Counted from the stretch's first letter, positions 18,134-35,458 are shown. The stretch: 53,581 bases of DNA from Patescibacteria group bacterium (GCA_038063055.1 JBBTVY010000004.1:1-53581), one strand, 5' to 3'. Program-made: numbers and translations. The notes: generated by a model not told the origin, from the sequence alone.

Positions 18134-21100
18134 ATGAAATACGACTTTAAAAAAATAGAATCAAAGTGGCAGAAGGTTTGGCAAAATGAAGGGGTTTATG
18201 AGCCGAATTTGAAAGAAGATAAGAATTCTACCCTTCGACCCGTTCGACCAGCTCAGGGCAAGCGGGCTCAGGGTAAAAAGGCTTCGCCTTTTTATAACCT
18301 GATGATGTTCCCGTATCCTTCGGCGGAAGGTCTTCATGTCGGGAACGCTTACGCTTTCGTTGGAAGCGACATTTATGGAAGGTTCAGAAGGATGAACTGC
18401 AATGACGTTTTCGAGCCGATAGGCCTCGACGGTTTCGGGATACATTCCGAAAATTATGCACTCAAAATCGGCGTTCATCCGGCTAAGCAGGCAAAAATTT
18501 CGGAAAAAAGATTCTATAAACAACTTGCTTCGCTAGGCAACGGATTTTCCTGGGACGAAAAACTCGAAACATACGACCCGGCTTATTATAAATGGACGCA
18601 GTGGATATTCACGCAGCTTTTTAAAAAGGGATTGGCTTATCGAAAGAAACAGCCGGTCAACTGGTGTCCTTCATGCAAGACAGTTCTTGCCGACGAGCAA
18701 GTGATACAAAAGAGACAAGAGACAAGAGACAAGAGACAAGGAATTACGTTTGGAGTATGCGAAAGATGCGATACAAAAGTAATCAAAAAGGAACTCGAGC
18801 AGTGGTTTTTCAAAATTACGGATTACGCAGAAAAGCTTTTGAAAAATATAGACGGGCTGGACTGGTCGGAGAAAGTGAAAGTCGCCCAACGGAATTGGCT
18901 CGGGAAATCCGAAGGCGCGGAAATTGATTTTGAAATAAAAACCAAAGAAAAGCCGAATTTCGTATTGCTTCACGGGTATAACGGTTCTCCGAAAGGCAAT
19001 TTTCGTCCATGGCTGAAAAAAGAACTTGAGAAAAAAGGATATAAAGTTTCCGTTCCGGCGTTGCCCAATTCCAAAAATCCGAAAGTAGCGGAACAAGTGG
19101 AATATGTTTTGAAACATGCCAAATTCGACAAAAATACCGTTCTTTTGGGCCACAGCTTGGGGGCAATCGTAGCGCTCAAGGTGTTGGAAAAACTAAAGCA
19201 GCCAGTATGGCGTTCAGTGCTTGTTGCCGGTTTCGTTGAGAATAAATTTTTGGACCATGACAGGTTTGACGAGAATACATTTGACTGGAAGTTTAATGCG
19301 AAGCGCATCCGCGCGAATGTAGGCGATTTGCACATTCTTCGCGATACGACAGATGAAGTAGTTCCGCCAGACCAAGCCAAGAAACTCCAGAACCTCTTCG
19401 GAGGAGCCGTCGCTGAATTTGCGGCGCAGGAGCCCCACATGTGCGGGAAACAGGAGCCGGAAGTGCTTCGGAGTTGTGTTGATTCAATTCGTGTTTTCAC
19501 AACCCGTCCGGACACGCTTTTCGGAGCGACTTATATGGTTCTCTCGCCGGAGAATCCGCTGATTCAGAATCTGGAATCAAGAATTCAGAATTTAGTAGAG
19601 GTTAAAAAATATATTAAAAAAGCCAAAGCGAAATCGGAAGAAGAAAAGATCGCAGAGGGACAGGTTAAAACAGGCGTTGAATTGAAAGGAATCAAAGCAA
19701 TCAATCCGGCAAATGGAAAGGAAATTCCAATATGGATCGCAGATTACGTTCTGACCGGCTACGGAACCGGCGCGATTATGGCGGTTCCGGCGCACGACGA
19801 ACGCGACTTTGAATTTGCGAAGAAATATAGATTGCCGATTATCAATGTTATCGAACCGGAAACTGGAAAATCTTTGCCGAACGAAGAATACAGGCGAAGC
19901 ATTGTTGCTATAGTGGAAGACGTAAAAACCGGAAAATTCTTAACACTCAATTGGGGACAAAAACTCGGCGGCACACTTTTCATAGGCGGAGGGATAGAAA
20001 ATGGTGAAGATGAGATTAAAGCCGCAATAAGGGAAATAAAAGAAGAAACCGGATACATAGACGTTAAATTCGTCGCAAAGACGGAGCGCATGCATCATCA
20101 TTATTTCGCTTTTTCCAAAAACGTTGGGCGAAATATAAATGCAGTAGGATTGCATTTTCACCTGTCTGGCGATAAAAAAGAAGACACAAAACTGCAGGAA
20201 TACGAAAAATTTGAAATTGAATGGCTTACAAAAGAGGAAATCCTTCAAAAAGTAGAGGATGAAAACCACATCTTGAGCTTCCGACGCTTGATTCTCGGAG
20301 AAATTTATATTGGTTCCGGGAAAATGGCGAACTCCGGCAAATTCAACGGCCTCGATTCGGAAACCGCCAAATGGGAAATAACAAAATTCGTCGGCGGCAA
20401 AAGAAAAACACAATTCCGCCTGCGCGATTGGTTAATTTCCCGCCAGCGCTATTGGGGAGCTCCGATTCCGATGGTTTACTGCGAGAAATGCGCCGCTTCC
20501 GGAAAAGGCGAACGGAAAGAGATGCCTGGATGGTATTCCGTTCCAGAAAACAAGCTGCCGGTAAAATTGCCGTTCGTAAAAGATTTTCGGCCGAAGGGAA
20601 CGGGCAAATCGCCGCTGGCCACAGTCAAATCGTTTTACGAAACCAAATGCCCGAAGTGCGGAGGCAAAGCGCGGCGTGAAACGGACGTTTCCGACACATT
20701 CCTCGATTCCGCATGGTATTTCCTGCGCTACCCTTCGACTCGCTCTGCTCGCTCAGGGCAAGTCCCGTGGGATAAGGAAATAACAAAAAAATGGTTGCCG
20801 GTGAACATGTACATCGGCGGAGCCGAGCATTCCGTTCTCCATCTCCTTTATTCGAGATTTTTGACTATGTTTTTCAAAGACATTAAACTCACAAATTTTG
20901 ATGAGCCATTCACTAAATTCCGCGCGCACGGGCTTTTGATAAAAGAAGGCGCGAAAATGTCGAAATCGAAAGGCAACGTTGTTAATCCTGACAAATATAT
21001 AAAAAACTTCGGCGCCGACACATTGCGTATGTATCTTATGTTTCTCGCGCCGTTTGAGCAGGGCGGTGATTTCAGGGATGCCGGAATTTTGGGAATCAAG

Positions 21101-21703
21101 AGATTTTTAGAAAGGGTCTGGAAAATGGGAACGCAGGCAACTTTTGCAGAACATCCGGCCAACAACAGAAAGATAAAACAGGCGCTTCACGCAACTATAA
21201 AGAAAGTTACAGAAGACATCGGAGAACTGCGGTACAATACCGCCATTTCGGCGCTGATGATACTTTTAAACGAATTCGAGGCCAACCCCGGTAATGTAAC
21301 AAAAGACGACTTCGAAAATTTTCTGAAGTTACTTGCCCCGTTCGCGCCGCATATCACGGAAGAGCTCTGGTACAGAACGCAGATAAACGCAGATGGTCAC
21401 GCAGATAAACGCAGATACATCAGCGAAAATCTGCGTAGTAATCAGCGAAAATCTGCGTTCAGAAGTATCCACTTGGAGAAATGGCCGGAGTACGACAAGA
21501 ACCTAGCGAAGAGTGAAACTTTTACGCTTGTAATACAGGTAAACGGCAAAGTTCGGGACAGCGTGGAGGCGCCCTCGGGCATCGGGAAAGAGGAAGCCGA
21601 AAAACTTGCCTTAAACAGCGAAAAGGTTAAAAATATCATTAAATCGGGAACCGCAAAGAAAACGATATACGTTCCCGGACGCCTCATAAATTTGGTTGTC
21701 TAA
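18134..21703 (+). CDS. leuS: leucine--tRNA ligase, 1189 aa, with two nested foreign enzyme domains and repeat insertions
   Basis: LeuRS core motifs are present: FPYPSAEGLHVGNA (HIGH), TTRPDTLFGATY and GTGAIMAVPAHDERDFEFA (CP1 editing), RDWLISRQRYWGAPIP, and KMSKSKGN. Confidence 0.96.
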   Translation: MKYDFKKIESKWQKVWQNEGVYEPNLKEDKNSTLRPVRPAQGKRAQGKKASPFYNLMMFPYPSAEGLHVGNAYAFVGSDIYGRFRRMNCNDVFEPIGLDGFGIHSENYALKIGVHPAKQAKISEKRFYKQLASLGNGFSWDEKLETYDPAYYKWTQWIFTQLFKKGLAYRKKQPVNWCPSCKTVLADEQVIQKRQETRDKRQGITFGVCERCDTKVIKKELEQWFFKITDYAEKLLKNIDGLDWSEKVKVAQRNWLGKSEGAEIDFEIKTKEKPNFVLLHGYNGSPKGNFRPWLKKELEKKGYKVSVPALPNSKNPKVAEQVEYVLKHAKFDKNTVLLGHSLGAIVALKVLEKLKQPVWRSVLVAGFVENKFLDHDRFDENTFDWKFNAKRIRANVGDLHILRDTTDEVVPPDQAKKLQNLFGGAVAEFAAQEPHMCGKQEPEVLRSCVDSIRVFTTRPDTLFGATYMVLSPENPLIQNLESRIQNLVEVKKYIKKAKAKSEEEKIAEGQVKTGVELKGIKAINPANGKEIPIWIADYVLTGYGTGAIMAVPAHDERDFEFAKKYRLPIINVIEPETGKSLPNEEYRRSIVAIVEDVKTGKFLTLNWGQKLGGTLFIGGGIENGEDEIKAAIREIKEETGYIDVKFVAKTERMHHHYFAFSKNVGRNINAVGLHFHLSGDKKEDTKLQEYEKFEIEWLTKEEILQKVEDENHILSFRRLILGEIYIGSGKMANSGKFNGLDSETAKWEITKFVGGKRKTQFRLRDWLISRQRYWGAPIPMVYCEKCAASGKGERKEMPGWYSVPENKLPVKLPFVKDFRPKGTGKSPLATVKSFYETKCPKCGGKARRETDVSDTFLDSAWYFLRYPSTRSARSGQVPWDKEITKKWLPVNMYIGGAEHSVLHLLYSRFLTMFFKDIKLTNFDEPFTKFRAHGLLIKEGAKMSKSKGNVVNPDKYIKNFGADTLRMYLMFLAPFEQGGDFRDAGILGIKRFLERVWKMGTQATFAEHPANNRKIKQALHATIKKVTEDIGELRYNTAISALMILLNEFEANPGNVTKDDFENFLKLLAPFAPHITEELWYRTQINADGHADKRRYISENLRSNQRKSAFRSIHLEKWPEYDKNLAKSETFTLVIQVNGKVRDSVEAPSGIGKEEAEKLALNSEKVKNIIKSGTAKKTIYVPGRLINLVV
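18231..18276. repeat. family-A repeat, in frame in leuS (N-terminus)
   Basis: The sequence cccttcgacccgttcgaccagctcagggcaagcgggctcagggtaa encodes LRPVRPAQGKRAQGK. Confidence 0.75.
18711..18738. repeat. (agagaca)x4 heptamer microsatellite inside leuS
   Basis: There are four perfect tandem heptamers encoding RQETRDKRQ. They lie between the CPSC and CERC zinc-knuckle cysteines. Confidence 0.9.
18947..19489 (+). other. alpha/beta-hydrolase (YdeN/RBBP9 serine-hydrolase-like) domain nested in LeuRS (aa ~272-452)
   Basis: It has NFVLLHGYNGSPKGNF, the nucleophile elbow LLGHSLGA, then DTTDEVVP and EPHM as candidate Asp and His. It lies between the LeuRS segments GAEIDF and IRVFTTRPDT. Confidence 0.8.
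19889..20299 (+). other. Nudix hydrolase domain nested in the LeuRS CP1 editing domain (aa ~586-722)
   Basis: A perfect Nudix box GX5EX7REUXEEXGU is present as GGIENGEDEIKAAIREIKEETGY (nt 19988-20056). Confidence 0.85.
20730..20763. repeat. family-A repeat, in frame in leuS (anticodon-binding side)
   Basis: The sequence cccttcgactcgctctgctcgctcagggcaagtc encodes PSTRSARSGQV. Confidence 0.75.
21377..21460. repeat. family-B repeat (cgcagataaacgcagat / atcagcgaaaatctgcg), in frame in leuS
   Basis: It contains internal direct and inverted copies of cgcagat/atctgcg and encodes QINADGHADKRRYISENLRSNQRKSAF. Confidence 0.8.
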
Positions 21704-23964: not shown

Positions 23965-24417
23965 ATGAACGATTTTGACGGCGACATCTCTGATTCGGAA
24001 CAAGAAAACAGGCACGGAAAAAGGGCCACGCATCCCCAACACTATTACGGCGACAACGTTAGAAAACTTTTTGTTGCCGGCGCGCTGATAATGCTTGTCA
24101 CTTTGCCGTTTTTCAAGGATTTTATCAGCGTCCCGGTTTCCTATTACATTATGGCGATGATTTTTTTGGGCCTTGTGGCCGGGTTTACCAATCCGAGGCA
24201 CCGCTGGGTGGTAATATTTAACGTAGCCATTTCGATTTATGCCATATTCTTTTTCGAGTCCGAGGCCATTTCCGCATTCGACTTTTATCAGAGAGAAATA
24301 TGGTATTTCTGGACAAACCAGCTTCTGGCGTTTATTTTCCTGATGTCTCTTTACTATGCCGCAAAGACGGAACGCGGCGCCTGGTTCAGGCACAGAAGGC
24401 ACGAAAATAATGAATAA
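23965..24417 (+). CDS. small membrane protein, hypothetical
   Basis: The 150-aa product has 4 predicted helices and is followed immediately by a terminator. Confidence 0.6.
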   Translation: MNDFDGDISDSEQENRHGKRATHPQHYYGDNVRKLFVAGALIMLVTLPFFKDFISVPVSYYIMAMIFLGLVAGFTNPRHRWVVIFNVAISIYAIFFFESEAISAFDFYQREIWYFWTNQLLAFIFLMSLYYAAKTERGAWFRHRRHENNE

Positions 24418-24424
24418 CTAAAAA

Positions 24425-24446
24425 CCCCGCCGTTGCGGGTTTTTTT
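24425..24446 (+). terminator. intrinsic terminator
   Basis: A cccgc-cgtt-gcggg hairpin is followed by T7. Confidence 0.75.
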
Positions 24447-24473: not shown

Positions 24474-24501
24474 TTGACACGAGTTTATCCGGCTATATAC
24501 T
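24474..24501 (+). promoter_or_regulatory. sigma70-like promoter TTGACA-16-TATACT
   Basis: The hexamers were read directly. It sits about 10 nt upstream of the riboswitch-like element. Confidence 0.6.
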
Positions 24502-24510
24502 GGTCTTGCT

Positions 24511-24643
24511 GTTATTTGTCGGGCGAAAGCCCGAGTCAACCGTAGACAGGAAGTGAGGTTTGATTCCTCCACTATGCCGTAGCGGTAATGTCCCGATCCT
24601 GAGTTTATCGAAGGAGAGGGAACAAGTCCGATCGTCAAATAAC
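24511..24643 (+). promoter_or_regulatory. cobalamin-riboswitch-like aptamer
   Basis: A closing helix pairs gttatttg (24511-18) with caaataac (24636-43). The core GGAAGTGAGGTTTGATTCCTCC..GCCGTAGCGGTAA resembles the B12 aptamer consensus, and AAGTCCGATCGTC sits at the B12-box position. The downstream genes are DUF4430-type. Confidence 0.6.
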
Positions 24644-24702
24644 ATAAAATTCCCGAGCAGGAAGTAGGCCGTTTCGGCTTATTGGATATCGATGATATTT
24701 CA

Positions 24703-24727
24703 CTTCCGCTCGGCGCGGAAGTTTTTT
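24703..24727 (+). terminator. riboswitch expression-platform terminator
   Basis: A cttccgc-tcggc-gcggaag hairpin is followed by T6. The left arm can alternatively pair with ggaagt at 24660-24665. Confidence 0.65.
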
Positions 24728-24733
24728 ATTTTT

Positions 24734-25282
24734 ATGAGCAAAAAAATATCTGTAATTTTAATTTCCGCTTGCGCCGTTTTCGGCATTTTATTCGTTCTAA
24801 TCGGGGACAAAGCGTTTTTGAACCGGACTTCTCCGACAGAATCAACGCAAAATAAAACAGACGATATTGTCGAGAATTCACCGCAAATTGATTTGCCGGA
24901 AAAGCTGAAGGTTCAATCGCCGGCAAAATCGGCTCCGGATAATACAGTCATTCAGCCTGACAATAGTTCTGCCGTGAGCTCATCCGATGACCAAAAAATA
25001 AAAGTTTCATTTACGGCGGGGGAATTTTCGCGTTCTTTTGATATTCCCGCTGATTCAACGGCGTACGACCTAATGACGGAGCTTGCTTCAACCACAGATT
25101 TCGCTTTTAAAAGCCGATATTATTCGGGGCTCGGATATTTCGTTCAGGAAATAAATGGTCGGCCCAACGCCGGCGGCGCCTATTGGACTCTCTACGTCAA
25201 CGGCAAATATTCGAATGTCGGCGCGTCGCAATACAAGCTTCAGCCGGGGGACGCGGTCGAATGGAGGTATGAAAAACAATGA
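24734..25282 (+). CDS. anchored DUF4430 (transcobalamin beta-domain-like) protein
   Basis: I start it at ATG 24734, downstream of the terminator (MSKKISVILISACAVF signal anchor). The C-terminus is GGAYWTLYVNGKYSNVGASQYKLQPGDAVEWRY. Confidence 0.8.
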   Translation: MSKKISVILISACAVFGILFVLIGDKAFLNRTSPTESTQNKTDDIVENSPQIDLPEKLKVQSPAKSAPDNTVIQPDNSSAVSSSDDQKIKVSFTAGEFSRSFDIPADSTAYDLMTELASTTDFAFKSRYYSGLGYFVQEINGRPNAGGAYWTLYVNGKYSNVGASQYKLQPGDAVEWRYEKQ

Positions 25283-25291
25283 AAATTTAAG

Positions 25292-28078
25292 ATGACATCG
25301 AAACGTTTTTCAAAATTATTAGTTTTTTCCGTTATTTTCTTTTCTGTTTTTATATCGTTCAATGCAGATGTTTCGGCGGATGATTCGAGTTCGACTACGC
25401 CAATCGACACCTCTATGTCGACAACCAGTTCGACTGACTTAACTTCTACGTCTACGATAACCGATGCTACGACTACGGTTCGCGCCGTAACGCTGACTCT
25501 CCGCGACGGCGGTTTTATAATCTGGACCGGCCCGGTTAGCGTGCCGGACTCCGATGTCGCAACGACAACGATTACGGCTACGGACGGCACCGCCGCCGAT
25601 GCGTACGCCGCGAGCGTACTTGCCGCGCTGGTTTCGGCGGACGCGGCCCAGCCGGAATTCTCCATATCGGACCTTCGGTACTACGGCTCATTTGCCTCGT
25701 TTTATCTCAAGTGTATAACGGCAGGCACAGAGCTTTGCGATAACTGGCAGTATGTCGTCAACAACACATACCCATCATCGGGAATGGCTCAGTACATACT
25801 GCGCGACGGGGATGCCGTATATCTTTATTTCGGGTCGCGGCGCCGCGTTCTACTCTCGGCAACAGAAACTGTTCCGACAATTCCTGTCGTCGCGCGCGTC
25901 GAGTCGTATAATTACACCGACGATTCTTGGTCGCCCCTTGTCGGCGAGACGGTCGGCGCGACAATGCCGAACCACGACGATCCGTGGAATCCCATTGTCG
26001 CCACCACAACAACAAGCGGCGCCGATGGCGCGGCGATTCTGACGCTTAACGCGACCGGAACTTACAACGTCGGGCTTGCATCCGATTATTACTTGACAAC
26101 CACGCCGCTGACGGTGCGTTCGCTCGCGCCCGACGAAGTGACCATGCGCGTCAGAAGCGGCGCAGACCTTGCTTATCAAGGGATAGTGACTATTTTCATG
26201 GCCACCACGTCCATCGCCGCAACGGACGGTTCGACGCACGATATCTCCGGCGCGACGCCGCTTGCGGTACTCGCTCTCGCCGATCAGGCATCGAACGCAT
26301 TCGACATTTCAAACCTGCAATATTTTGACTCATTCGGCGCATTCTATGTTAAATGCATCACTCTTTCTGGCCCACTGTGTGACAACTGGCAATATGCCGT
26401 GAACGGCGCGGTTCCCGGTGTCGGAGCGGATGCGTATAATCTTTTGGGAGGCGAAGACGTGTTCTTCTTTTATGGCTACCCGCGGCGAGTTTCTCTTTCG
26501 TCTTCAAGCATAACAATCGACTCGTCCGTGACCGCAACGGCGGAAACCTATGCGCCTTCCAGTAATATATATGTTCCAACGCCCGGACTCACTATTGGCG
26601 TCACGCAGCCAGATCCAGTAAATCCATGGACCCCCATTGAAATCGCTACATCCACTTCGGACGCGAACGGACAGGCGACATTCACCCTTAATGCCACAGG
26701 CACGTACCAGGTAGGCATACGGGAGGATTTCTATTTTCCGTCGACGGATATTGCCGTTACTTATATTTCCCAAACCCCGGTTATATCCGTGGGCGGCGGC
26801 GGTGGAGGAGGCGCCATACATCATGCGATTGACATCGCCAAGGCCGTCCAGTTTCTTTCAGGTCATCAGCTTGATAACGGTTCATTCGGCCCGCTTCTTT
26901 ACACGGATTGGGCGGCCATAGCTCTGGCCGCGAGCGCGAATTCGGGAAGTTCCACGGCAAAAATCGCGGCGTATTTAAAATCGGCTAACGACGGCATGTC
27001 GACGGCAACGGATTACGAAAGGCACGCAATGGCGCTTATGGCTTTGGGAATAAATCCTTATACGGATACGCCGGTAAACTATATCCAAAAAATTGTTGAT
27101 AAATTCGACGGAACCCAAATCGGCGATTTCAACCTGGTAAACGACGACATATTTTCTTTATTTCCGCTTATCAAAGCCGGTTACGCCAGCGACGAACCGA
27201 TTATCCAAAAAATTATTTCGTTTGTTTTGAGTAAACAATTGGACGATGGTTCGTGGGAAGGAAGCATTGACTTGACCGCGGCCGGCATCCAGGCGCTTTC
27301 GCTTAATTCCGGAATCAGCGGCGTTTCCCAAGCTATAATAAGCTCCCGCGCATATCTCGCCGCCCACCAGAGTTCGGACGGGGGATTCGGAACAAGTTTT
27401 TCCACAAGCTGGGCGCTTCAGGCAATCTCCGCGCTCCGCGAATCGGAATCCAATTGGACAAAAAACAATAATACGCCGAATGATTATCTTTTCGCTTTGC
27501 AGGCGGGCGACGGCGGCATAGAGCCGACTTCAACAGATTTGAATTCCCGAATATGGGCGACCTCGTATGCGATTCCGGCAACACTCAATAAATCCTGGGG
27601 AGATTTGCTTCATTCCTTTACGAGGCCTGCCGCGGGAACAACTACGGTTGTTTCCGTTCCGGGTTCTTCCGGAGGAAATTCGCAAAGTCAGACAACCTCA
27701 ACAGTGCCTTCTATTACTAAGGCAACGTCGTCTCCAGAAACAGACGCTTATATTATTGTTTCGACCTCGACGTTGTCCATCACAACGTCAACGGCTTCCG
27801 GCGCAAAAAATGCCGTTCCTCGAAGTACTGCCGTTAAAAACACTCTTTCTTTAACAGAAGTTTCAACCAAGATTTCTTCTCCCGGCGAAGGTTTTTTGGA
27901 TAAATTGTCGGAAAATAATCCAGTTTTAACTCTTGAGCCGTCTCCGCAGCCCCAGAAAACGGGAACATCCGGATTTGCGAACATTGCCGCTTTCGGTCAT
28001 AATTTGCTGAATTTTATGGCGAACATAGGCGGTTTGATTATTTCCAAATTTTTATCTATTATTGGATTAATAAAGTAA
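25292..28078 (+). CDS. 928-aa surface protein: 2 x (DUF4430 + Ig-like) + prenyltransferase-like alpha/alpha toroid + S/T-rich stalk + C-terminal TM anchor
   Basis: It has a signal peptide and two DUF4430 motifs (CDNWQYVVNN..GDAVYLYFG and CDNWQYAVNG..GEDVFFFYG). Four Q..DGxF/W repeats are present (HQLDNGSFG, KQLDDGSWEG, HQSSDGGFG, LQAGDGGIE), and the tail is hydrophobic. Confidence 0.85.
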   Translation: MTSKRFSKLLVFSVIFFSVFISFNADVSADDSSSTTPIDTSMSTTSSTDLTSTSTITDATTTVRAVTLTLRDGGFIIWTGPVSVPDSDVATTTITATDGTAADAYAASVLAALVSADAAQPEFSISDLRYYGSFASFYLKCITAGTELCDNWQYVVNNTYPSSGMAQYILRDGDAVYLYFGSRRRVLLSATETVPTIPVVARVESYNYTDDSWSPLVGETVGATMPNHDDPWNPIVATTTTSGADGAAILTLNATGTYNVGLASDYYLTTTPLTVRSLAPDEVTMRVRSGADLAYQGIVTIFMATTSIAATDGSTHDISGATPLAVLALADQASNAFDISNLQYFDSFGAFYVKCITLSGPLCDNWQYAVNGAVPGVGADAYNLLGGEDVFFFYGYPRRVSLSSSSITIDSSVTATAETYAPSSNIYVPTPGLTIGVTQPDPVNPWTPIEIATSTSDANGQATFTLNATGTYQVGIREDFYFPSTDIAVTYISQTPVISVGGGGGGGAIHHAIDIAKAVQFLSGHQLDNGSFGPLLYTDWAAIALAASANSGSSTAKIAAYLKSANDGMSTATDYERHAMALMALGINPYTDTPVNYIQKIVDKFDGTQIGDFNLVNDDIFSLFPLIKAGYASDEPIIQKIISFVLSKQLDDGSWEGSIDLTAAGIQALSLNSGISGVSQAIISSRAYLAAHQSSDGGFGTSFSTSWALQAISALRESESNWTKNNNTPNDYLFALQAGDGGIEPTSTDLNSRIWATSYAIPATLNKSWGDLLHSFTRPAAGTTTVVSVPGSSGGNSQSQTTSTVPSITKATSSPETDAYIIVSTSTLSITTSTASGAKNAVPRSTAVKNTLSLTEVSTKISSPGEGFLDKLSENNPVLTLEPSPQPQKTGTSGFANIAAFGHNLLNFMANIGGLIISKFLSIIGLIK

Positions 28079-28122
28079 AAATAAATTTTAACTTGTCGGC
28101 TCGCTGTCAAGTGTAAAATAAT

Positions 28123-28674
28123 ATGTCCAGAAAATTTTCCATTTTTGTAGTCGTTTTGCTGATTACCGCTGGAGTTGCCAGCCGTTTCCTTCCGCATGCC
28201 TGGAATATGACTCCGATTACGGCCATAGCTCTCTTTACGTCTGTTTATTTTGGAATTCGATATTCGCTTTTTATAGTTTTGGCGACGATGTTCATCTCCG
28301 ATTTATTCATCGGGTTTTACGACTGGCGGATAATGCTTTCGGTTTACGCCGGATTCGCGGTGGCCGGCATTATCGGCGTTCTTGTCCGCAGGCATAAAAC
28401 GGTTATTAGCGTTGCTTTGGGCGCAATATCTTCTTCCGTGTTTTTCTTCATATTTACGAACTGGGCGGTTTGGCAATTCGGCGTGATGTACGAACATTCC
28501 TTTGCTGGATTGTTGCAATCTTATGCGATGGCTCTGCCGTTCTTCAAGAATATGTTTGTTGGAGACTTGGTTTATTCGGGAATTCTTTTCGGGAGTTACG
28601 AGCTTGCGTTGCTTCTTTCCAAAAAACTTAAATTTCGTTCCTCGTCCAAAAATCTTTCTTTGGAGAAAATATAA
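28123..28674 (+). CDS. small 6-TM protein, ECF S-component / BtuM-like putative corrinoid transporter (DUF6580-like)
   Basis: The 183-aa product has RFLPHAWNMTPITAIALF near the N-terminus and 5-6 hydrophobic helices. It is the last gene of the riboswitch-led operon. The function is inferred from context. Confidence 0.5.
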   Translation: MSRKFSIFVVVLLITAGVASRFLPHAWNMTPITAIALFTSVYFGIRYSLFIVLATMFISDLFIGFYDWRIMLSVYAGFAVAGIIGVLVRRHKTVISVALGAISSSVFFFIFTNWAVWQFGVMYEHSFAGLLQSYAMALPFFKNMFVGDLVYSGILFGSYELALLLSKKLKFRSSSKNLSLEKI

Positions 28675-28887: not shown

Positions 28888-28974
28888 CGGAGGAGGTGAG
28901 ATTCGAACTCACGATGCCCTTTCAAGCATACCGCATTTCGAGTGCGGCGCCTTCGGCCACTCAGCCACTCCTCC
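28888..28974 (-). tRNA. tRNA-Ser(CGA)
   Basis: Manual cloverleaf: acceptor GGAGGAG/CTCCTCC, anticodon loop CTCGAAA, long variable arm, T-loop TTCGAAT. Confidence 0.9.
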
Positions 28975-29089
28975 GTTAGAAAATCTTAGCGATTCACAAT
29001 AACGAAAAGCTTTAGATTTTCTTTTGCTCCGACCGCGGTCGGGACACTCATTTTTCTAAGCTTATAATTCGCTAAAAAAAAATTGAGTG

Positions 29090-29161
29090 TCCCCCCGGTA
29101 GGAATCGAACCTACATCAGCTCGTTAGGAGTGAGCCATTCTATCCATTGAACTACGAGGGG
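29090..29161 (-). tRNA. tRNA-Arg(CCT)
   Basis: Manual cloverleaf: acceptor CCCCTCG/CGGGGGG, anticodon loop CTCCTAA, T-loop TTCGATT. There is one A-C mismatch in the anticodon stem. Confidence 0.85.
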
Positions 29162-29208
29162 TATGCCAAATCAATCCTGCTATACGCTTTTTCATTGCGA
29201 AAAATTCT

Positions 29209-29424
29209 TTAAGCAATAATCCAATTATTTTCGGAAATTATTTTGCTTGCATTGCGACGATTCAACCACCGTTCGTAATGCAGAGGAGAGATTGTAACAC
29301 CTTTTACATATCTGGAAACCGTAGATTTAGGACGGTTGAGATGTTTGCTGATCTCGGGGATACTAAACCCTCTTCTTCTCAAGCTTCTTATTTGGGAAAT
29401 TATTTTGGTATTCAAGCTCTTCAC
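29209..29424 (-). CDS. small HTH protein (71 aa, GTG start), possible remnant of a homing-endonuclease/resolvase-type gene
   Basis: IRSLRRRGFSIPEISKHLNRPKSTVSRYV is a classic helix-turn-helix. The ORF sits between tRNA-Arg(CCT) and a decayed copy of a tRNA-Arg 5' half. Confidence 0.55.
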   Translation of the reverse strand: MKSLNTKIISQIRSLRRRGFSIPEISKHLNRPKSTVSRYVKGVTISPLHYERWLNRRNASKIISENNWIIA

Positions 29425-29458
29425 GTATATTATTATATCAAATAATATACCCTTTACA

Positions 29459-29494
29459 AGGATAAGATTGCTCTATCCATTGAACTACGAGGGC
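29459..29494 (-). pseudogene. tRNA-Arg 5'-half fragment (acceptor to anticodon CCT, no 3' half)
   Basis: It reads GCCCTCGTAGTTCAATGGATAGAGCAATCTTATCCT. A 22-nt stretch (29472-29493) is identical to 29139-29160 of the intact tRNA-Arg(CCT). Confidence 0.7.
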
Positions 29495-29510
29495 ATCTAT
29501 CGGAAGTTTG

Positions 29511-29581
29511 TGGACCTACGGGGAGTCGAACCCCGACCTGTTCCATGCCATGGAACTGTTCTACCGCTATACTATAGGCCC
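29511..29581 (-). tRNA. tRNA-Ala(GGC)
   Basis: Manual cloverleaf: G3:U70 in the acceptor GGGCCTA/TAGGTCC, anticodon loop ATGGCAT. Confidence 0.85.
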
Positions 29582-29672
29582 TGTTTTTCTTGCAACGCGG
29601 CGTTTTGTAGGATATATTATAATTTATCGCTAAAATTTTTTCAAACTTATTTTGAATTAACCCGCTTTCAAG

Positions 29673-29744
29673 GCCGCGGTAGCTCAGTGGTAGAGCGCTA
29701 CCCTGAAGAGGTAGGCGTCGGGTGTTCGATTCACCCCCGCGGCA
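29673..29744 (+). tRNA. tRNA-Phe(GAA)
   Basis: Manual cloverleaf: GCCGCGG/CCGCGGC, D-arm GCTCAGTGGTAGAGC, anticodon loop CTGAAGA. Confidence 0.92.
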
Positions 29745-29757
29745 CACTTCGCATAAA

Positions 29758-30468
29758 ATGAGTAATCTGCCCAAACATATAGTTCTCATTCCTGACGGAA
29801 ACAGGCGGTGGGCCAAGAAAAAAGGCCTGCCGCCGTTTTTCGGCCACCGCGAGGGAGCTAAGAACACGGAAAAATTGCTCAAGGCCGCGCTGAATTTAGG
29901 AATAGAAAATCTTACCATTTGGGGCTGTTCGGTTGATAATGTTACAAAAAGGACTCCGGCAGAAGTGAAGTTTCTCATGAAAATATTCGAAACCTACTCT
30001 AAAAAGCTCGCCAATAACAGGAAAGAAATTCCTGAAAACGAAGTTAGAGTAAATGTTCTTGGCAGATGGAAAGAACTGTTCCCTGAAGCCACCAAAAAAG
30101 CGATACAATCGGCCATTGATAAAACAAAAAAATATGACAAGCGCCGGCTTACTGTCCTGATGGCTTATAGCGGGACGGACGAAATGACACAAGCGGTAAA
30201 TAAAATTTCGGCGCTGAAATCAAAAAATAAAAAGCTGAAAATCGACGGGAATTTGATAAAAAATAATCTTTGGACTAAAGATTTGCCGCCGGTGGATTTG
30301 GTAATCAGGATGGGCGGCGAACCACACTTGTCAAGCGGCATGATGATGTGGGACATAGCCAACAGCCAGCTTTATTTTACGGAAACCCTTTATCCGGACT
30401 TCTCTGTTGCGGAATTCAAGAAAGCGTTGGAGAATTACGGCAAGACCGAACGGAGAATGGGGAAGTAG
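29758..30468 (+). CDS. uppS: isoprenyl transferase (undecaprenyl-diphosphate synthase)
   Basis: I start it at ATG 29758 (MSNLPKHIVLIPDGNRRWA). RMGGEPHLSSGMMMW is also present. The longer ORF would overlap tRNA-Phe. Confidence 0.92.
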   Translation: MSNLPKHIVLIPDGNRRWAKKKGLPPFFGHREGAKNTEKLLKAALNLGIENLTIWGCSVDNVTKRTPAEVKFLMKIFETYSKKLANNRKEIPENEVRVNVLGRWKELFPEATKKAIQSAIDKTKKYDKRRLTVLMAYSGTDEMTQAVNKISALKSKNKKLKIDGNLIKNNLWTKDLPPVDLVIRMGGEPHLSSGMMMWDIANSQLYFTETLYPDFSVAEFKKALENYGKTERRMGK

Positions 30469-30476
30469 TTTGAGAT

Positions 30477-30562
30477 GGGCCGTTAGTCCGACCGCTGTCG
30501 GACTCCGACTGCGGTCGGAGCTCAGTTGCGGTCGGAGCTCAGTTGCGGTCGGAGTAGAGCGC
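30477..30562 (+). pseudogene. disrupted copy of the tRNA-Ala(TGC) 5' region (acceptor + D-arm) interrupted by ccgac..gtcgg hairpin repeats
   Basis: GGGCCGTTAG ... AGCTCAGTTG (x2, inside a 17-nt tandem repeat) ... GTAGAGCGC matches positions 1-27 of the intact tRNA at 30826. Confidence 0.65.
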
Positions 30563-30564
30563 AA

Positions 30565-30822
30565 ATGAAAAAACAAAGCAATAAAAATGGCAGATATTAC
30601 ACTGGCAGCACAGACGACATGGAAAACAGATTGAAGTGTCATAATTCCGGCTGGGTCGCCGCAACTAAAAATTACCGACCATTTAAGTTGTTAGCTTTTT
30701 TGCCTTGTGCTAATTTAAGTGAAGCTAGGAAATCAGAGTATCGTCTTAAGCAATACAAGAGAAAGGATATATTGGAAAAAGTAGTCGCCGATCTAGAATT
30801 TCCCTGGTTGCATAAAGTTTAG
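30565..30822 (+). CDS. GIY-YIG nuclease-family protein (YhbQ/UPF0213-like), apparently lacking the first GIY strand
   Basis: It has YYTGSTDDMENRLKCHNSG and EARKSEYRLKQ. The stop lies 3 nt before tRNA-Ala(TGC). Confidence 0.7.
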   Translation: MKKQSNKNGRYYTGSTDDMENRLKCHNSGWVAATKNYRPFKLLAFLPCANLSEARKSEYRLKQYKRKDILEKVVADLEFPWLHKV

Positions 30823-30825
30823 AAT

Positions 30826-30898
30826 GGGCCGTTAGCTCAGTTGGTAGAGCGCCTCGTTTGCAACGAGGAGGTCAGCGGTTCAAATCCGCTACGGTCCA
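30826..30898 (+). tRNA. tRNA-Ala(TGC)
   Basis: Manual cloverleaf: GGGCCGT/ACGGTCC with G3:U70, anticodon loop TTTGCAA. Confidence 0.92.
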
Positions 30899-30920
30899 CA
30901 GGCCTGTCTGCGGCAGGCAG

Positions 30921-30956
30921 GGTGGGGTGTCCGAGTGGTTTAAGGAGACGGTCTTG
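30921..30956 (+). pseudogene. tRNA-Ser 5'-half fragment
   Basis: GGTGGGGTGTCCGAGTGGTTTAAGGAGACGGTCTTG parallels the intact tRNA-Ser(TGA) up to anticodon-loop position 35 and then diverges. Confidence 0.65.
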
Positions 30957-31009
30957 TTCCCGATTTGTCTGAGCGGAGCGAAGTTACAAATCGCAATCCC
31001 GCACAGAGC

Positions 31010-31096
31010 GGAGGCGTGCGTGAGTGGTTTAAACGGACGGTCTTGAAAACCGTTATGCCTTAACCGGCATCGAAGGTTCGAATCCTTCCGCCTCCG
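31010..31096 (+). tRNA. tRNA-Ser(TGA)
   Basis: Manual cloverleaf: GGAGGCG/CGCCTCC, anticodon loop CTTGAAA, long variable arm TATGCCTTAACCGGCATC. Confidence 0.9.
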
Positions 31097-31196
31097 CTTT
31101 GTGCGGGAAAAACATCAATGAGAGTTCTCCCGCCGCGGCGGGAAGAATCTCACCCCCACCGCCAGAAAAAAGTTTTATCGGCAGACCCACCAGCAT

Positions 31197-31727
31197 ATGG
31201 CACATATCAATATTGAGATTAAAGCAAGGTGTGATAATCACGAAAAAGTTCGCAACTTTCTTAAATCTAGGAAGGCGGGTTTTAGGGGTATAGACCATCA
31301 AGTAGATACATATTTTAAAGTTGGGGCTGGAAGATTGAAGCTACGAGAGGGTAATATTGAAAATTATTTAATTTTCTATGAGAGAGAAAATAAAGAAGGG
31401 CCAAAACAATCTAAGGTTAATCTCTTCAAAACGCCCCCAAAATCCTCACTAAAGGACATCCTTACTCAGGCTTTGGGAGTTTTGGTAATAGTTGATAAGA
31501 AGAGGGAGATTTATTTTATTGAAAATGTAAAGTTCCATATTGATACAGTCAAAGATCTAGGAACTTTTATGGAAATCGAAGCCATTGATAGTGATGGAAA
31601 TATAGGAAAAGAAAAACTTTTAGAGCAGTGTAATAACTACATAAAATCATTCGATATTTCAGAAAATGACCTTATATCTGTCTCCTATAGCGATTTGCTT
31701 TTACAACAGCCCAACCCACATGCCTAA
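31197..31727 (+). CDS. CYTH-domain protein (class IV adenylate cyclase / triphosphatase-like)
   Basis: It has the N-terminal INIEIKAR (ExExK motif), then GRLKLRE, FHIDTV and FMEIEA strands. Confidence 0.8.
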   Translation: MAHINIEIKARCDNHEKVRNFLKSRKAGFRGIDHQVDTYFKVGAGRLKLREGNIENYLIFYERENKEGPKQSKVNLFKTPPKSSLKDILTQALGVLVIVDKKREIYFIENVKFHIDTVKDLGTFMEIEAIDSDGNIGKEKLLEQCNNYIKSFDISENDLISVSYSDLLLQQPNPHA

Positions 31728-31911
31728 AATTTCAATTTTTTCAGACCCTCAATAAATCCTTATACTGCTTGCGCACGGTGGACACTTAACCCGAGTGTCC
31801 CGCCAGTTAGAGGATCGGTTCGAGAAACATTCCGGCCTGCGGTGGCAGGGCGACCTAAATACATCTACATCAATACCCAAGTTTTCGCAGAGCAGCTATA
31901 ATAAAACACTA

Positions 31912-32811
31912 ATGAGACACATTATCGAATCACAGCAATTCGATCGAAAAACCATAGAAAATATTTTTTACCTTGCAGACAGTTTAGAGAAAAAGAAAGA
32001 TTCATCATTGAAAGGGAAAATAATGGCATCGCTTTTTTATGAACCGAGTACCAGAACCCGGTTTTCGTTTGAATCAGCAATGTTGCGACTTGGGGGAGAT
32101 GTTATCACAACTGAAAATGCTAAAGAATTTTCCTCGGCAGCGAAAGGAGAAACATTGGAGGATACAATACGAGTTATCAATAACTATGCCGACGTCATTG
32201 TACTCCGACACTACGAGAAAGGCGCTTCGGAAAGAGCTGCTACGGTGTCCGAAATTCCCATCATTAACGCCGGGGACGGAACTGGCCAACACCCCACACA
32301 GGCCCTCCTTGATATTTACACAATCCGAAAAGAGCTTGGAAAAATCGACGGGATAAAAATCGCTTTTGTGGGTGATCTAAAAAATGGAAGGACGGTGCGA
32401 TCATTGGCCTACTTACTTGGCAAATATCATAATGTGCGAATCTTTTTTATATCGCCGCGAGGGCTCAAAATAAGCAGAGACATAAAAGATTATTTAAACA
32501 GACATGCCATCTCTTATAAAGAGCTAGAGCAATGGGATTCGATCCTAAAAAATATTGATGTTCTTTATCAGACAAGAATTCAAAAGGAGAGATTTAAAAA
32601 TGTTCGAGAATACAAAAAATTCAAGGGGCAGTATATTCTTACGCTTAAAGAGGTCGAGAAAATGAAATCGAATGCGATTATTATGCATCCTCTTCCGCGA
32701 GTGGACGAAATAGCGGTTGAAGTAGATTCTTCGCCCAAAGCGGCCTATTTTAAACAAGCGCGCTACGGACTACTTATAAGAATGGCGCTTCTTAAATTTT
32801 TACTAAAATAA
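31912..32811 (+). CDS. pyrB: aspartate carbamoyltransferase catalytic subunit
   Basis: I start it at ATG 31912 (MRHIIESQQF). FYEPSTRTRFSFE, HPTQALLD and MHPLPR are present. Confidence 0.93.
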   Translation: MRHIIESQQFDRKTIENIFYLADSLEKKKDSSLKGKIMASLFYEPSTRTRFSFESAMLRLGGDVITTENAKEFSSAAKGETLEDTIRVINNYADVIVLRHYEKGASERAATVSEIPIINAGDGTGQHPTQALLDIYTIRKELGKIDGIKIAFVGDLKNGRTVRSLAYLLGKYHNVRIFFISPRGLKISRDIKDYLNRHAISYKELEQWDSILKNIDVLYQTRIQKERFKNVREYKKFKGQYILTLKEVEKMKSNAIIMHPLPRVDEIAVEVDSSPKAAYFKQARYGLLIRMALLKFLLK

Positions 32812-32937
32812 ACGAGCGACATACAGGCCTCGAATGATTCACTGCCAAGAACGTTGCAACGACTTGCCAGAACCGGTTATAAACCCACGCACTCCGCCAG
32901 TTTTGATTGTCAATTATTCGTATAAATTTCGGCGCGG

Positions 32938-33321
32938 CTACCAATAAATCCAAATGCCGTAAGAACGCAGAAACGGGCCTCCAAAATATGAAGCAGCGTT
33001 GCCGCAGAAAGACGCGACAAACGCGGTTCTCCAGCTTATTTTAAGAAAAAGCCGGTAGAAAATCGCTTCGACGGCGAAAGCAAACAACTCGCTAAATACC
33101 AGAGACGCATCCGGAGACCAATTGTAAGCGTAGGGGAAGACGAACCAGACGTACGGAATGGTTGCAAAAGAAGCGAATAACCCCGCGAATATTATCGATT
33201 TATAATCCAGCGCCGGTTTTTTCCAAATAAACTTAAAAATCAGTAATAAAATTGCCGTTTCGACCACAGCCGTAAAAACAAGCGAAGTTATAAATCTATG
33301 TATCAAAAATATTGTTATCAT
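32938..33321 (-). CDS. small 4-TM membrane protein, hypothetical
   Basis: The 127-aa product has four hydrophobic helices. I recognised no motif. Confidence 0.55.
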   Translation of the reverse strand: MITIFLIHRFITSLVFTAVVETAILLLIFKFIWKKPALDYKSIIFAGLFASFATIPYVWFVFPYAYNWSPDASLVFSELFAFAVEAIFYRLFLKISWRTAFVASFCGNAASYFGGPFLRSYGIWIYW

Positions 33322-33446
33322 TATTTTAAGCGGATTATAAAAATTATAACCCGTACAACAAAAAGATAAACCATATAATTTTTTTTATGCCTGAGCAGGG
33401 ATAATTTGCTTAGAAGAGAAAATCGTTTACAATTCTTTTGCCGGAT

Positions 33447-33518
33447 GCCGGAGTAGCTCAATGGCAGAGCAATGCTTTCGTAAAGCAGAGGTTGGAGGTT
33501 CGACTCCTCTCTCCGGCT
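33447..33518 (+). tRNA. tRNA-Thr(CGT)
   Basis: Manual cloverleaf: GCCGGAG/CTCCGGC, anticodon loop TTCGTAA, T-loop TTCGACT. Confidence 0.85.
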
Positions 33519-33528
33519 CATAACGCTT

Positions 33529-34155
33529 TTAGGTTGTTGCATCCAATTTATTCTTTGGCAACGTTCTTTTTTTGAAATATCGTATCGCTGAATAAGCGAT
33601 TATTAGAGCAGTGTAGTTTACGACTATGAACAGGGGATTTGCCCAAGCATATCCCTGGAACTTCCATCCTGCGATTGGCCAAAAAACGGGAGTCGGGTAA
33701 AACGCGTAGGAATGCGTCGGAACGTCGAGAGCTATATGGAGGAACCACCCGCCCATTTCCCAGGGAATTCGATTTTTTTTAAGGAAAAATTTTCTGAAAA
33801 TAATTACAAGCGCTATAACGACGAAGAAAACGACCATGCTGTGCGAAATGTTGTAAAGCGACGCGGTCAGATAAGAAATCGATGATTCGGCCTGTCGCGT
33901 GTCGCCGTTGCCAAAAAGAAGTTTCCTTTCAGGTTCGTCTCCTGTCGGCGGATGTATATCCGAAAAGTTAACGTTGCCCGAAAGCAGATTCCCAAAAAGC
34001 CAGACGAATGGAATTGTGAAGGCGAATAAATCCGGGAAAACGCCCCAAAAAGCCGTCAGCCAGACGTTAAGCTTCCTTTTAGATTCTTTACCCTGAGCTT
34101 GTCGAAGGGCTTTTGCTGCCGCTCCGGCCCAAAGACCATGTGAAAGAATGTCCAT
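33529..34155 (-). CDS. membrane-bound metal-dependent hydrolase (YdjM/DUF457-like)
   Basis: It has MDILSHGLWA at the N-terminus, His-rich loops and 4-5 TM helices. It carries an in-frame family-A repeat (ALRQAQGK). Confidence 0.7.
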   Translation of the reverse strand: MDILSHGLWAGAAAKALRQAQGKESKRKLNVWLTAFWGVFPDLFAFTIPFVWLFGNLLSGNVNFSDIHPPTGDEPERKLLFGNGDTRQAESSISYLTASLYNISHSMVVFFVVIALVIIFRKFFLKKNRIPWEMGGWFLHIALDVPTHSYAFYPTPVFWPIAGWKFQGYAWANPLFIVVNYTALIIAYSAIRYFKKRTLPKNKLDATT

Positions 34156-34197
34156 TATATCTAGTCTTGCGTAATTTTCTCGGTGCCCCGCACAAAG

Positions 34198-34271
<74 letters not shown>

Positions 34272-34407
34272 ACTTTGTGCGGGATTGCGATTTGTGCATA
34301 AAAATTCTACGCGAGCTTGAATTTTTAGACAAATCGGAAATAAACTTACGCTCTACTGCCACTGCCTGTCCGCCTCTGGCGGAAGCTAATCGCGCTCTTA
34401 CGTTATC

Positions 34408-35194: not shown

Positions 35195-35309
35195 TATGAA
35201 AACAAAGTTGATTTTAATCTATTTTCGCGATAATTTAAAGATACACTTTGGTTCGTTTGTGTGAATTTAAGCGGGCTTGCCCGCCATAGTTCGCACAGGT
35301 GAGCGAAGG

Positions 35310-35380
35310 CGGGCTGTCGTATACCGGTAGTACGCATACTTTGGGAGTATGTAGACTGGGTTCAATTCCCAGCAGCCCGA
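35310..35380 (+). tRNA. tRNA-Pro(TGG)
   Basis: Manual cloverleaf: CGGGCTG/CAGCCCG (C1:G72), anticodon loop TTTGGGA. Confidence 0.9.
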
Positions 35381-35446: not shown

Positions 35447-35458
35447 TATCCGAAGTAT

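Follow-up and report, generated by a model that had tools for sequence, protein, structure and literature searches.

A cobalamin-type riboswitch and a candidate corrinoid capture and import operon in Patescibacteria

A contig of 53,581 nucleotides from a Patescibacteria group bacterium (candidate phyla radiation, CPR; GCA_038063055.1 JBBTVY010000004.1:1-53581), the whole of which was analysed and is called the window below, carries an RNA leader of the cobalamin riboswitch family in front of three same-strand genes. This leader probably acts as a transcriptional OFF switch that controls the three genes as a corrinoid capture and import operon. Two of the genes encode surface proteins with transcobalamin-like parts, and the third a small membrane protein of the DUF6580 family that has the fold of an S-component of the energy-coupling factor (ECF) transporters. 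Ultra-small episymbionts of this kind rely heavily on external cofactors, and their vitamin acquisition is poorly known. The contig is from Hainich groundwater Patescibacteria, and its closest named relative is a metagenome-assembled genome of Candidatus Liptonbacteria. A preliminary description had already proposed a B12-repressed, cell-surface corrinoid uptake system with an S-component-like permease; the sequence features that it described all occur at the positions it gave, and the evidence from both RNA and protein makes that proposal a likely one. What it says of ligand binding, termination and transport is prediction from sequence.

The leader RNA and its relatives

The assignment of the leader rests on a comparison with its relatives. 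An alignment of DUF6580 homologs was used to pull 80 loci from species-representative genomes (labelled by L-numbers), and an nhmmer search with the window leader as query found a similar element in about 40 of these, each time 2.5-4 kb ahead of DUF6580 and on the strand of the operon. A covariance model, R1, was built from 39 sequences with the window and its six closest relatives left out. It scores the window leader at 53.2 bits (E 3.4e-15), the sole match on both strands of the 53.6 kb. In 52 of the 80 related loci it finds exactly one copy, always in the orientation of the operon. Across the 39 sequences the RF01482-type structure has 92.6% of its cells paired, against 36-52% in controls whose pairing partners were slid by 1-3 columns; both partners have changed in 13 of the 20 pairs, and the covariation score reaches 0.50 compared with 0.07-0.13 in the controls. 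The subgroup that includes the window was analysed separately from the main group; MAFFT could not align the 5' strand of its P3 with that of the main group. Here 96.4% of cells are paired against 33-48% in slid controls, with compensatory changes in the outer helix (4 pairs) and in both of the hairpins that are inserted in this subgroup. The four-way junction P3-P4-P5-P6, with a conserved GGAA in J3/4 and the B12 box in J6/3, is thus borne out by covariation.

The core of the family follows a fixed order (GGAAG, P4, ACUGUGCCGCAACGGUAA, a variable hairpin, then AAGUCCGRUCUU), and the outer helix around it varies freely in sequence. The cobalamin-like core and the B12 box at a position adjacent to P1 that had been read in the window, GGAAGTGAGGTTTGATTCCTCC..GCCGTAGCGGTAA at 24549-24588 and AAGTCCGATCGTC at 24624-36, align with the core that is nearly invariant in about 50 homologous elements, and the GGAAG...GCCGUAGCGGUAA core and AAGUCCGAUCGUC are readable directly in the window sequence. 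The closing helix, first described as gttatttg (24511-18) with caaataac (24636-43), is present and lengthens by one pair to 24510-18 and 24636-44; it is homologous to the main-group P3 (UAUAUCUG/CAGAUAUA), in which 8 of 8 pairs covary. The window P5 (UAU/GUA) differs at its middle pair by a double change from G-C to A-U, and the middle pair of P6 is G-C in 29, U-A in 8 and C-G in 1 of the 39-sequence set. The P6 extension is variable in length and lacking in L062, while the second inserted hairpin is longer, and compensated, in L016, L013 and L012. The minimum free energy (MFE) of the leader corresponds to a z-score of -3.35. One pairing in the MFE fold, CUUGCU 24505-10 with AGCAGG, was rejected: L008 does not keep it, and most of it precedes the point where transcription would begin.

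How does such an element relate to the curated models? At gathering thresholds Rfam reports 13 tRNAs over the whole window and no cobalamin family, and in permissive mode the best score of the aptamer, with AdoCbl-II (RF01689), is 15.8 against a threshold of 36.5 bits. The P6 register of that match, in which CGG and CCG close directly, is not conserved in relatives and was replaced by an RF01482-type register with a P6 extension. The hairpin insertions of the subgroup and the long P6 extension probably explain the poor score. The relative L066 clears the RF01482 threshold (54.5 against 50 bits), and its alignment to that model yields the architecture P3, J3/4, P4, P5, P6 with extension, B12 box and P3'. 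Other homologs, from the pattern scan described below, pass one gathering threshold each: L127 with RF01482 (50.5 bits), L114 with RF01689 (44.2) and L146 with RF00174 (35.6). Below all three thresholds are 9 of 10 loci in one set tested and 7 of 10 DUF4430-type loci in another; among the matches listed, Rfam passes 5 of 10 elements of the biosynthesis and transport group and 3 of 10 of the DUF4430/DUF6580 group, spread over RF00174, RF01482 and RF01689. A Rfam match, which the preliminary description had offered as a check, was not obtained at threshold in the window, while the fold that it named beside it, the four-way junction with a kissing loop, does form with covariation. The configuration is widespread and lies near the thresholds of all three models; it is a new member of the known class, one that Rfam mostly misses, and not a new class.

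The architecture is that of the cobalamin clan CL00101 (RF01482 AdoCbl, RF00174 Cobalamin, RF01689 AdoCbl-II), with which the leader shares the P3-P6 junction, the GGAA of J3/4, the CUGUGCCGCAACGGUAA core of P5, J5/6 and P6, the AAGUCCGRUCUU B12 box, the L5-L13 kissing loop and a terminator-type platform. Unlike the models of the clan, the window subgroup has two hairpins between the 5' strand of P3 and J3/4 as well as a P5 of UAU/GUA, and members of the family scatter over the three models.

Retrieval through DUF6580 biases the sample, so a second scan of metagenome contigs relied on nothing but a DNA pattern of the aptamer core. It returned at least 120 stretches. Among the matches listed, 28 are followed by genes of the DUF4430, toroid or DUF6580 kind and 64 by other genes, and a further 28 end too early for a call. 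Clustering and Pfam identify among the matches listed CbiC, a corrin methylase (TP_methylase), CbiX and nitrite/sulfite-reductase-like proteins, as well as Peripla_BP_2 (BtuF-type) genes with ABC_tran genes in the same operons; R1 scores these elements, again among the matches listed, at 27-90 bits. By their annotation, the other genes behind the same core are classical members of the B12 regulon, concerned with B12 biosynthesis or transport, and the leader was not found before unrelated genes in the way that might have spoken against its assignment.

The RNA can be called a cobalamin riboswitch despite the failure in Rfam because of its score with an independent model, the covariation, the homologs above Rfam thresholds and the B12 genes behind the same core, and the assignment is very probable, with a cobalamin as the presumed ligand. 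Could it instead be a structured RNA that is conserved but has lost its ligand sensing, such as a constitutive attenuator or a protein-binding leader? The window copy is under all Rfam thresholds, has two extra hairpins and carries G for A at J5/6. However, the GGAA of J3/4, the B12 box and L5/L13 are near-invariant over about 50 species while the helices covary freely, a combination that implies selection on the binding site, and close homologs do clear the Rfam thresholds. Loss of sensing is accordingly highly improbable.

The pattern scan also revealed two protein clusters directly after the same type of riboswitch on non-CPR contigs (L116, L129, L130, L139, L152, L170, L198, L202). Complete members are about 430-510 and 530-560 amino acids (aa) long, the representatives scanned have no Pfam match, and the first cluster is followed in several loci by a cytidylyltransferase-like gene. 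These are candidate B12-regulated proteins.

The expression platform and the proposed switch

The promoter that had been proposed for the leader was found in its place and is the top promoter-like site between 23900 and 29000 (Table 1). TTGACA-like hexamers occur at equal distance in many homologous loci, and transcription would start near 24508. Upstream of it, at 23965-24446, lies the gene of a 150-aa membrane protein with no Pfam family that ends in a GC-rich hairpin (24426-39) between A-runs and T-runs; this hairpin scores as a terminator on both strands and would insulate the riboswitch promoter from upstream transcription.

An L5-L13 kissing loop is a defining trait of cobalamin riboswitches. 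Across the family, a P13-type hairpin with a CGAGCA loop sits 5-60 nt past the aptamer, and its stems covary (UCC/GGA, UUCUU/AAGAA, UCUC/GAGA, CCCA/UGGG). In the gene-agnostic scan the CGAGCA-loop hairpin occurs downstream in 64 of 107 loci, compared with 0 of 94 upstream controls, among the matches listed. L5 (UGCCG) and CG(A)GCA can form five pairs with one bulged A, and both natural variants of L5 are compensated in the hairpin loop: AGCCG in L030 stands with UGAGCU, and UCGCG in L067 with UCGCGG. These two independent variants give moderate support to a kissing loop between L5 and L13.

Downstream of P13 and two spacer hairpins, the terminator that had been noted proves to be the top terminator-like site, and a terminator-like hairpin is present in 51 of 53 relatives. 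Its left arm can indeed pair with ggaagt, and over a longer stretch than was claimed: the strand at 24653-65 forms 12 Watson-Crick pairs with one bulged A; this helix alone has a free energy of -16.2 kcal/mol. In constrained folds the two states are isoenergetic (-26.6 kcal/mol with the terminator formed, -26.7 kcal/mol with the antiterminator), as expected if ligand-dependent docking of L13 sets the outcome. A complement of the GCUCG type is found in the terminator arm or loop of most relatives. An automatic antiterminator scan that disallowed bulges saw 7 bp in the window instead of the 12 bp obtained with one bulged A, which makes its per-locus significance unusable. Gene 1 may also use the GGAAG in the 3' arm of the terminator, which lies 13 nt ahead of its ATG (24734), as a ribosome-binding site.

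Together, these helices suggest how the switch would work. Transcription from the strong promoter would yield an RNA that folds into the P3-P6 four-way junction with its GGAA J3/4 and B12 box J6/3. With corrinoid bound, L5 (UGCCG) would kiss the P13 loop (CGAGCA) and keep P13 closed; the terminator at 24702-22 and its U-tract would then form, and transcription would stop before gene 1, leaving the operon OFF. When no ligand is present, CGAGCA-GGAAGU would pair with the 5' arm and loop of the terminator in the 12-bp antiterminator, and the operon would be transcribed.

Some relatives depart from this arrangement. L064 (7588-7640) and L068 (1341-1395) carry two tandem hairpins with CGAGC[AG] or UGAGCG loops where others have one, which may be a duplicated kissing-loop partner. 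The aptamer of L086 (7106-7200), which precedes the same operon, is of a more classical type (GGGAAG..., L5 UCAGG, AGCCAGG box) and comes without the CGAGCA hairpin; its L5 could pair with CCUG of the terminator arm instead.

The operon, its proteins and competing assignments

The three genes lie on one strand, as had been described, with gaps of 9 and 44 nt. The order of element, DUF4430 gene, toroid gene and DUF6580 gene is kept in at least 50 of the 80 loci, and most loci that lack the element end at a contig edge. A short form without the large toroid protein occurs in L054 and L019. In a set of two-gene short forms (DUF4430 and DUF6580: L010, L015, L020, L037, L038, L047, L071, L076, L082) no riboswitch is detectable; L037 has a tRNA gene just upstream in its place, and L010 an assembly gap. 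These riboswitch-less short forms imply that the module is not always under B12 control.

Gene 1 encodes a protein with an N-terminal hydrophobic segment and one DUF4430 domain, the domain that had been predicted here and that was found both in this protein and in gene 2. Its best sequence match in the Protein Data Bank (PDB) is the beta domain of transcobalamin II, residues 311-410, a weak one at E 0.93. An alternative start at 24692 is unlikely, being within the leader and upstream of the terminator. NCBIfam has no match for gene 1 or gene 3.

Gene 2 encodes a surface protein of several parts: a signal peptide, two repeats of beta-grasp (DUF4430) plus beta-sandwich (aa 63-285 and 312-490), a glycine linker, an alpha/alpha toroid (aa 515-772), a disordered stalk rich in Ser, Thr and Pro (aa 786-900) and a transmembrane (TM) helix (aa 903-925). 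Pfam recognizes DUF4430 in two stretches (1.6e-9), each beta-grasp module has a conserved Cys pair (C141/C149, C355/C363), and there are four Q..DG[SG][WFI] repeats, as announced. The AlphaFold2 model, from an alignment of 77 sequences, has a pLDDT of 76.9 overall and about 97 in the toroid. Matches of the toroid to known families stay below threshold in Pfam: SQHop_cyclase_C scores 21.9 against 26.1 bits, and PF01122 (Cobalamin_bind) 19.2 against 25 bits over aa 678-724 only, although several homologs of gene 2 do carry PF01122. Foldseek relates gene 2 to transcobalamin chains (E 2e-6 to 7e-6, TM up to 0.48) and also to a terpene synthase. The transcobalamin-like parts of the preliminary description thus hold for the DUF4430 modules at the level of Pfam and for the toroid at the level of fold; by sequence profile the toroid is nearest to repeats of the squalene-hopene-cyclase type.

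Other identities for the large protein were weighed, since its best matches point elsewhere. It might be a surface protease trap like alpha2-macroglobulin, or an enzyme like a terpene cyclase, the riboswitch being real and the operon a B12-independent substitute. The top Foldseek matches of the full-length protein are TEP1, alpha2-macroglobulin and complement, which share the beta-sandwich and toroid; the toroid profile is closest to squalene-hopene cyclase (3e-17) and finds no transcobalamin at E<=1 in the PDB; and public annotations of homologs read 'terpene cyclase/mutase' or 'prenyltransferase/squalene oxidase'. The alpha2-macroglobulin-like proteins dominate the Foldseek list because the query was the full-length, multi-domain model, and the Pfam match to TED_complement has an E-value of 0.079. 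The thioester reading was rejected on the toroid itself, as there is no Cys in aa 505-780 and no C.EQ motif. A class II terpene cyclase was likewise rejected: the protein has no D.DD motif anywhere, the segment that aligns to the cyclase DVDDTA reads SIDLTA, and it contains a single toroid of about 260 aa where the cyclase has two domains. Moreover, a signal peptide, a stalk and a C-terminal anchor place the protein outside the cell, and its toroid is always fused or adjacent to DUF4430 modules, with an S-component-fold protein following. A trap or cyclase is for these reasons very improbable.

A capture role for the surface proteins, by contrast, agrees with an older prediction. Burroughs, Balaji, Iyer and Aravind proposed in 2007 that bacterial surface proteins with SLBB (now DUF4430) and alpha/alpha-toroid domains scavenge B12, often with a paralogous SLBB protein in the same operon and with both domain orders noted in bacteria (PMC1796856). 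The window proteins share with these scavengers the fusion of beta-grasp and toroid, the signal peptide, surface anchoring, extra Ig-like domains and a second SLBB paralog. The operons described there, from Firmicutes and some archaea, usually include CbiO-like ATPase and CbiQ-like genes, whereas the sole membrane partner here is DUF6580 with no ATPase nearby; the host is a member of the Patescibacteria, and the anchor is a C-terminal TM helix after a Ser/Thr-rich stalk instead of an LPXTG motif. Eukaryotic transcobalamin, intrinsic factor and haptocorrin are made of the same two blocks, an alpha/alpha toroid and a DUF4430-type beta-grasp that sandwich B12. They are single alpha-beta chains, while here two beta modules come before the alpha toroid and a further one sits in an anchored protein of its own; the large protein is tethered to the membrane, and its PF01122 match is below threshold. 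Binding of a corrinoid by these surface proteins can be proposed from such likenesses, and the operon products would then work in series at the cell surface to hand the corrinoid to DUF6580.

Gene 3 is the 183-aa S-component-like protein with six transmembrane helices that had been foreseen. Its AlphaFold2 model (pLDDT 91.6) shows six helices, and the ten best Foldseek matches in the PDB are all ECF S-components, including RibU, ThiT and 4huq_S (probability 0.72-1.0, TM 0.43-0.65). The DUF6580 profile has one match in the PDB, chain A of 6fnp (21 bits). A search with gene 3 as a single sequence gives the same chain at E 0.34 and 4hzu_S at E 0.18. 6FNP is the vitamin B12 transporter ECF-CbrT (PMC5997447), and chain A, with 182 residues, would by its size be CbrT itself. 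From fold, context and this remote homology, DUF6580 may be a CbrT-like S-component-fold protein that carries the corrinoid across the membrane. As it stands, the operon consists of transcobalamin-like capture proteins and a CbrT-like DUF6580 without an ATPase nearby, and it is conserved across Patescibacteria. No paper on DUF6580 was found in the literature searched, nor anything relevant on a cobalamin riboswitch in Patescibacteria or CPR, on a B12-dependent ribonucleotide reductase in Patescibacteria, or on CbrS.

What would power such transport? One possibility is that DUF6580 is an ordinary group-II ECF S-component that docks on a shared EcfA/A'/T module encoded elsewhere, as CbrT does, with the riboswitch and the capture proteins unchanged. 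The only PDB profile match is to a chain that is presumably CbrT, which works with an ECF module, and the fold resembles the module-dependent RibU, ThiT and FolT. Shared modules are usually encoded away from their S-components, as is generally known and as Rodionov et al. 2009 are cited for in PMC5997447. ECF-CbrT of Lactobacillus delbrueckii (6FNP, PMC5997447) shares with gene 3 the small six-helix S-component fold and the B12 context; it needs EcfAA'T and sits in an nrdJ-cbrS-cbrT-pduO cluster, while here the similarity is remote, confined to helices 1-4, and surface capture genes take the place of that cluster. On the other side, no ABC-ATPase-like ORF adjoins the operon in the 80 loci and in only 4 of them does one occur within 10 kb; in the window, the genes with Pfam annotation include no ECF A or T component and no ABC ATPase, as had been reported. 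A shared module has somewhat less than an even chance of being the explanation.

The other possibility is that DUF6580 acts alone, which the earlier solitary-permease reading modelled on BtuM. BtuM is an S-component-type B12 transporter thought to act without a dedicated ECF module (PMC6072759). It binds cobalt via a cysteine, whereas the window DUF6580 has no Cys, the maximum Cys frequency in any column of the DUF6580 alignment is 0.16, and BtuM is not among the sequence or fold matches of the family. With no conserved cysteine, DUF6580 is not BtuM-like in its ligand chemistry, and the BtuM reading was rejected. A broader proposal is that DUF6580 is a new family of corrinoid transporters without an ECF module, fed by a tethered transcobalamin-like complex, and that the module is the standard B12 route of much of the CPR; this is tentative and, on the evidence in hand, rather doubtful.

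The cargo has also to be considered. In place of complete cobalamin, the imported compound might be a tetrapyrrole of another kind (heme, for example) or a precursor of corrinoids (for example cobinamide), with the riboswitch sensing cobalamin as a proxy. In Lactobacillus sakei, the Lsa1836-1840 ECF-like system likewise combines secreted transcobalamin beta-like and alpha-like proteins with an S-component, and the Lsa1839/1840 pair in its operon has been linked experimentally to heme uptake (bioRxiv 10.1101/864751); that system has EcfA-A' and EcfT, and no riboswitch is reported for it. ECF-CbrT also carries cobinamide (PMC5997447), and Burroughs et al. allow for 'B12 or its precursors' (PMC1796856). 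Control by an aptamer of the cobalamin class, whose B12 box and kissing loop are conserved, nevertheless points to a corrinoid, the same aptamer type controls cbi and BtuF-type genes, and the operon contains no heme-related gene. Import of a different cargo is improbable.

Several observations count against a riboswitch-controlled corrinoid import operon and temper its likelihood. Besides the sub-threshold Rfam score of the window aptamer, the heme link in L. sakei and the alpha2-macroglobulin and cyclase matches of gene 2, about 14 related loci with sufficient upstream sequence have no riboswitch. The Foldseek E-values of gene 3 with S-components range from 0.05 to 1, and the link between DUF6580 and CbrT is weak, with an E-value of 0.0018 over helices 1-4 only. 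Within the 53.6 kb of the window there is no sign of a B12-dependent enzyme, an adenosyltransferase or an ECF module, so that use of B12 by the organism is a presumption. Set against these points, the riboswitch, the conserved gene order and the folds of the three proteins still make corrinoid capture and import the probable function of the operon.

Mapped features, neighbouring genes and significance

Table 1. Positions of the promoter, riboswitch parts, expression platform and genes in the window
Feature	Position	Strand	Basis
Sigma-70-type promoter: TTGACA 24474-79, 16-nt spacer, TATACT 24496-501	24474-24501	+	11/12 consensus matches
Whole cobalamin-riboswitch aptamer	24510-24644	+	R1 score, covariation, homologs above Rfam thresholds
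Closing helix 5' strand (P3-equivalent), UGUUAUUUG	24510-24518	+	Partner 24636-24644; 95% of cells paired, 4/9 pairs changed on both sides (window subgroup)
Inserted hairpin a, U CGGGC GAAA GCCCG A	24519-24534	+	Window subgroup only; 97.6% paired, 3/6 pairs changed on both sides
Inserted hairpin b, GUC AACCGUA GAC	24535-24547	+	Window subgroup only; 96% paired
J3/4, AGGAA (conserved GGAA)	24548-24552	+	Near-invariant in 50 sequences; aligns with UGGAAG of RF01482
P4 and L4, G-U-GAGG UUUGAUU CCUC-C	24553-24570	+	94.9% paired, 3/5 pairs changed on both sides
P5/L5, UAU GCC GUA	24573-24581	+	P5 of other members invariant UGU/GCA
L5 with flanks, UGCCG; proposed kissing-loop strand	24575-24579	+	Complementarity to CGAGCA loop
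P6, CGG 24583-85 with CCG 24628-30, around variable extension hairpin	24583-24630	+	Covariation of middle pair
B12 box/J6-3, AAGUCCGAUCGU	24624-24635	+	Near-invariant AAGUCCG(A/G)UCUU in family; aligns with AAGUCAGGUCUUU of RF01482
Closing helix 3' strand, CAAAUAACA	24636-24644	+	Covariation of the same helix as 24510-18
P13-type hairpin, UUCC-CGAGCA-GGAA; loop L13 24654-59, proposed to kiss L5	24650-24663	+	In 50/53 family members, with covarying stems
Antiterminator strand, CCGAGC-A-GGAAGU	24653-24665	+	Pairs with terminator 5' arm and loop, ACUUCCGCUCGG, 24702-24713
Two spacer hairpins (24664-82, 24684-700) between P13 and terminator	24664-24700	+	Both constrained folds and MFE fold; vary among relatives
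Intrinsic terminator: stem 24702-09/24715-22, loop 24710-14, U-tract 24723-33	24702-24733	+	Top terminator-like site
Gene 1, 182 aa, N-terminal membrane anchor and one DUF4430 (transcobalamin beta-domain-type beta-grasp)	24734-25282	+	Pfam DUF4430 (PF14478) 3e-16
Gene 2, 928-aa surface protein	25292-28078	+	Pfam, AlphaFold2, Foldseek, PDB profile search, motifs
Gene 3, 183-aa six-helix membrane protein, DUF6580, ECF S-component fold	28123-28674	+	Pfam DUF6580 2e-45

Elsewhere in the window, two class-I aminoacyl-tRNA synthetase genes have further domain matches between their synthetase parts. The first (18134-21703, plus strand) encodes a LeuRS-like protein of 1189 aa with Abhydrolase_1/Ser_hydrolase and NUDIX matches, an unusual combination of domains that are inserted or fused, and the second (48617-51493, minus strand) a protein of 958 aa with His_Phos_1 (histidine phosphatase) between tRNA-synt_1 segments. 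Just past the operon, at 28888-35530, a loose cluster of tRNA genes occupies both strands, part of the 13 tRNAs of the window, and an ORF with a GIY-YIG domain (30526-30822) lies between tRNA genes.

For the annotation of these genomes, the curated cobalamin models miss most copies of the riboswitch in a lineage abundant in metagenomes from groundwater and elsewhere, so that riboswitch censuses of the CPR under-count; R1 recovers the copies cleanly. DUF6580 gains a specific proposed function as a B12-regulated, CbrT-like corrinoid carrier, on the basis of the riboswitch, the fold, remote homology and a synteny that is conserved in more than 50 species-level genomes. The operon also carries the prediction made in 2007 for bacterial B12 scavengers of the transcobalamin type over to ultra-small episymbiotic bacteria. 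Should DUF6580 work independently of an ECF module, it would join BtuM as a second case of vitamin transport by a solitary protein of the S-component type. And if this ECF-free module is indeed a standard route, dependence on B12 would be common in the CPR, and its proteins would be a deep-branching prokaryotic counterpart of animal transcobalamin.

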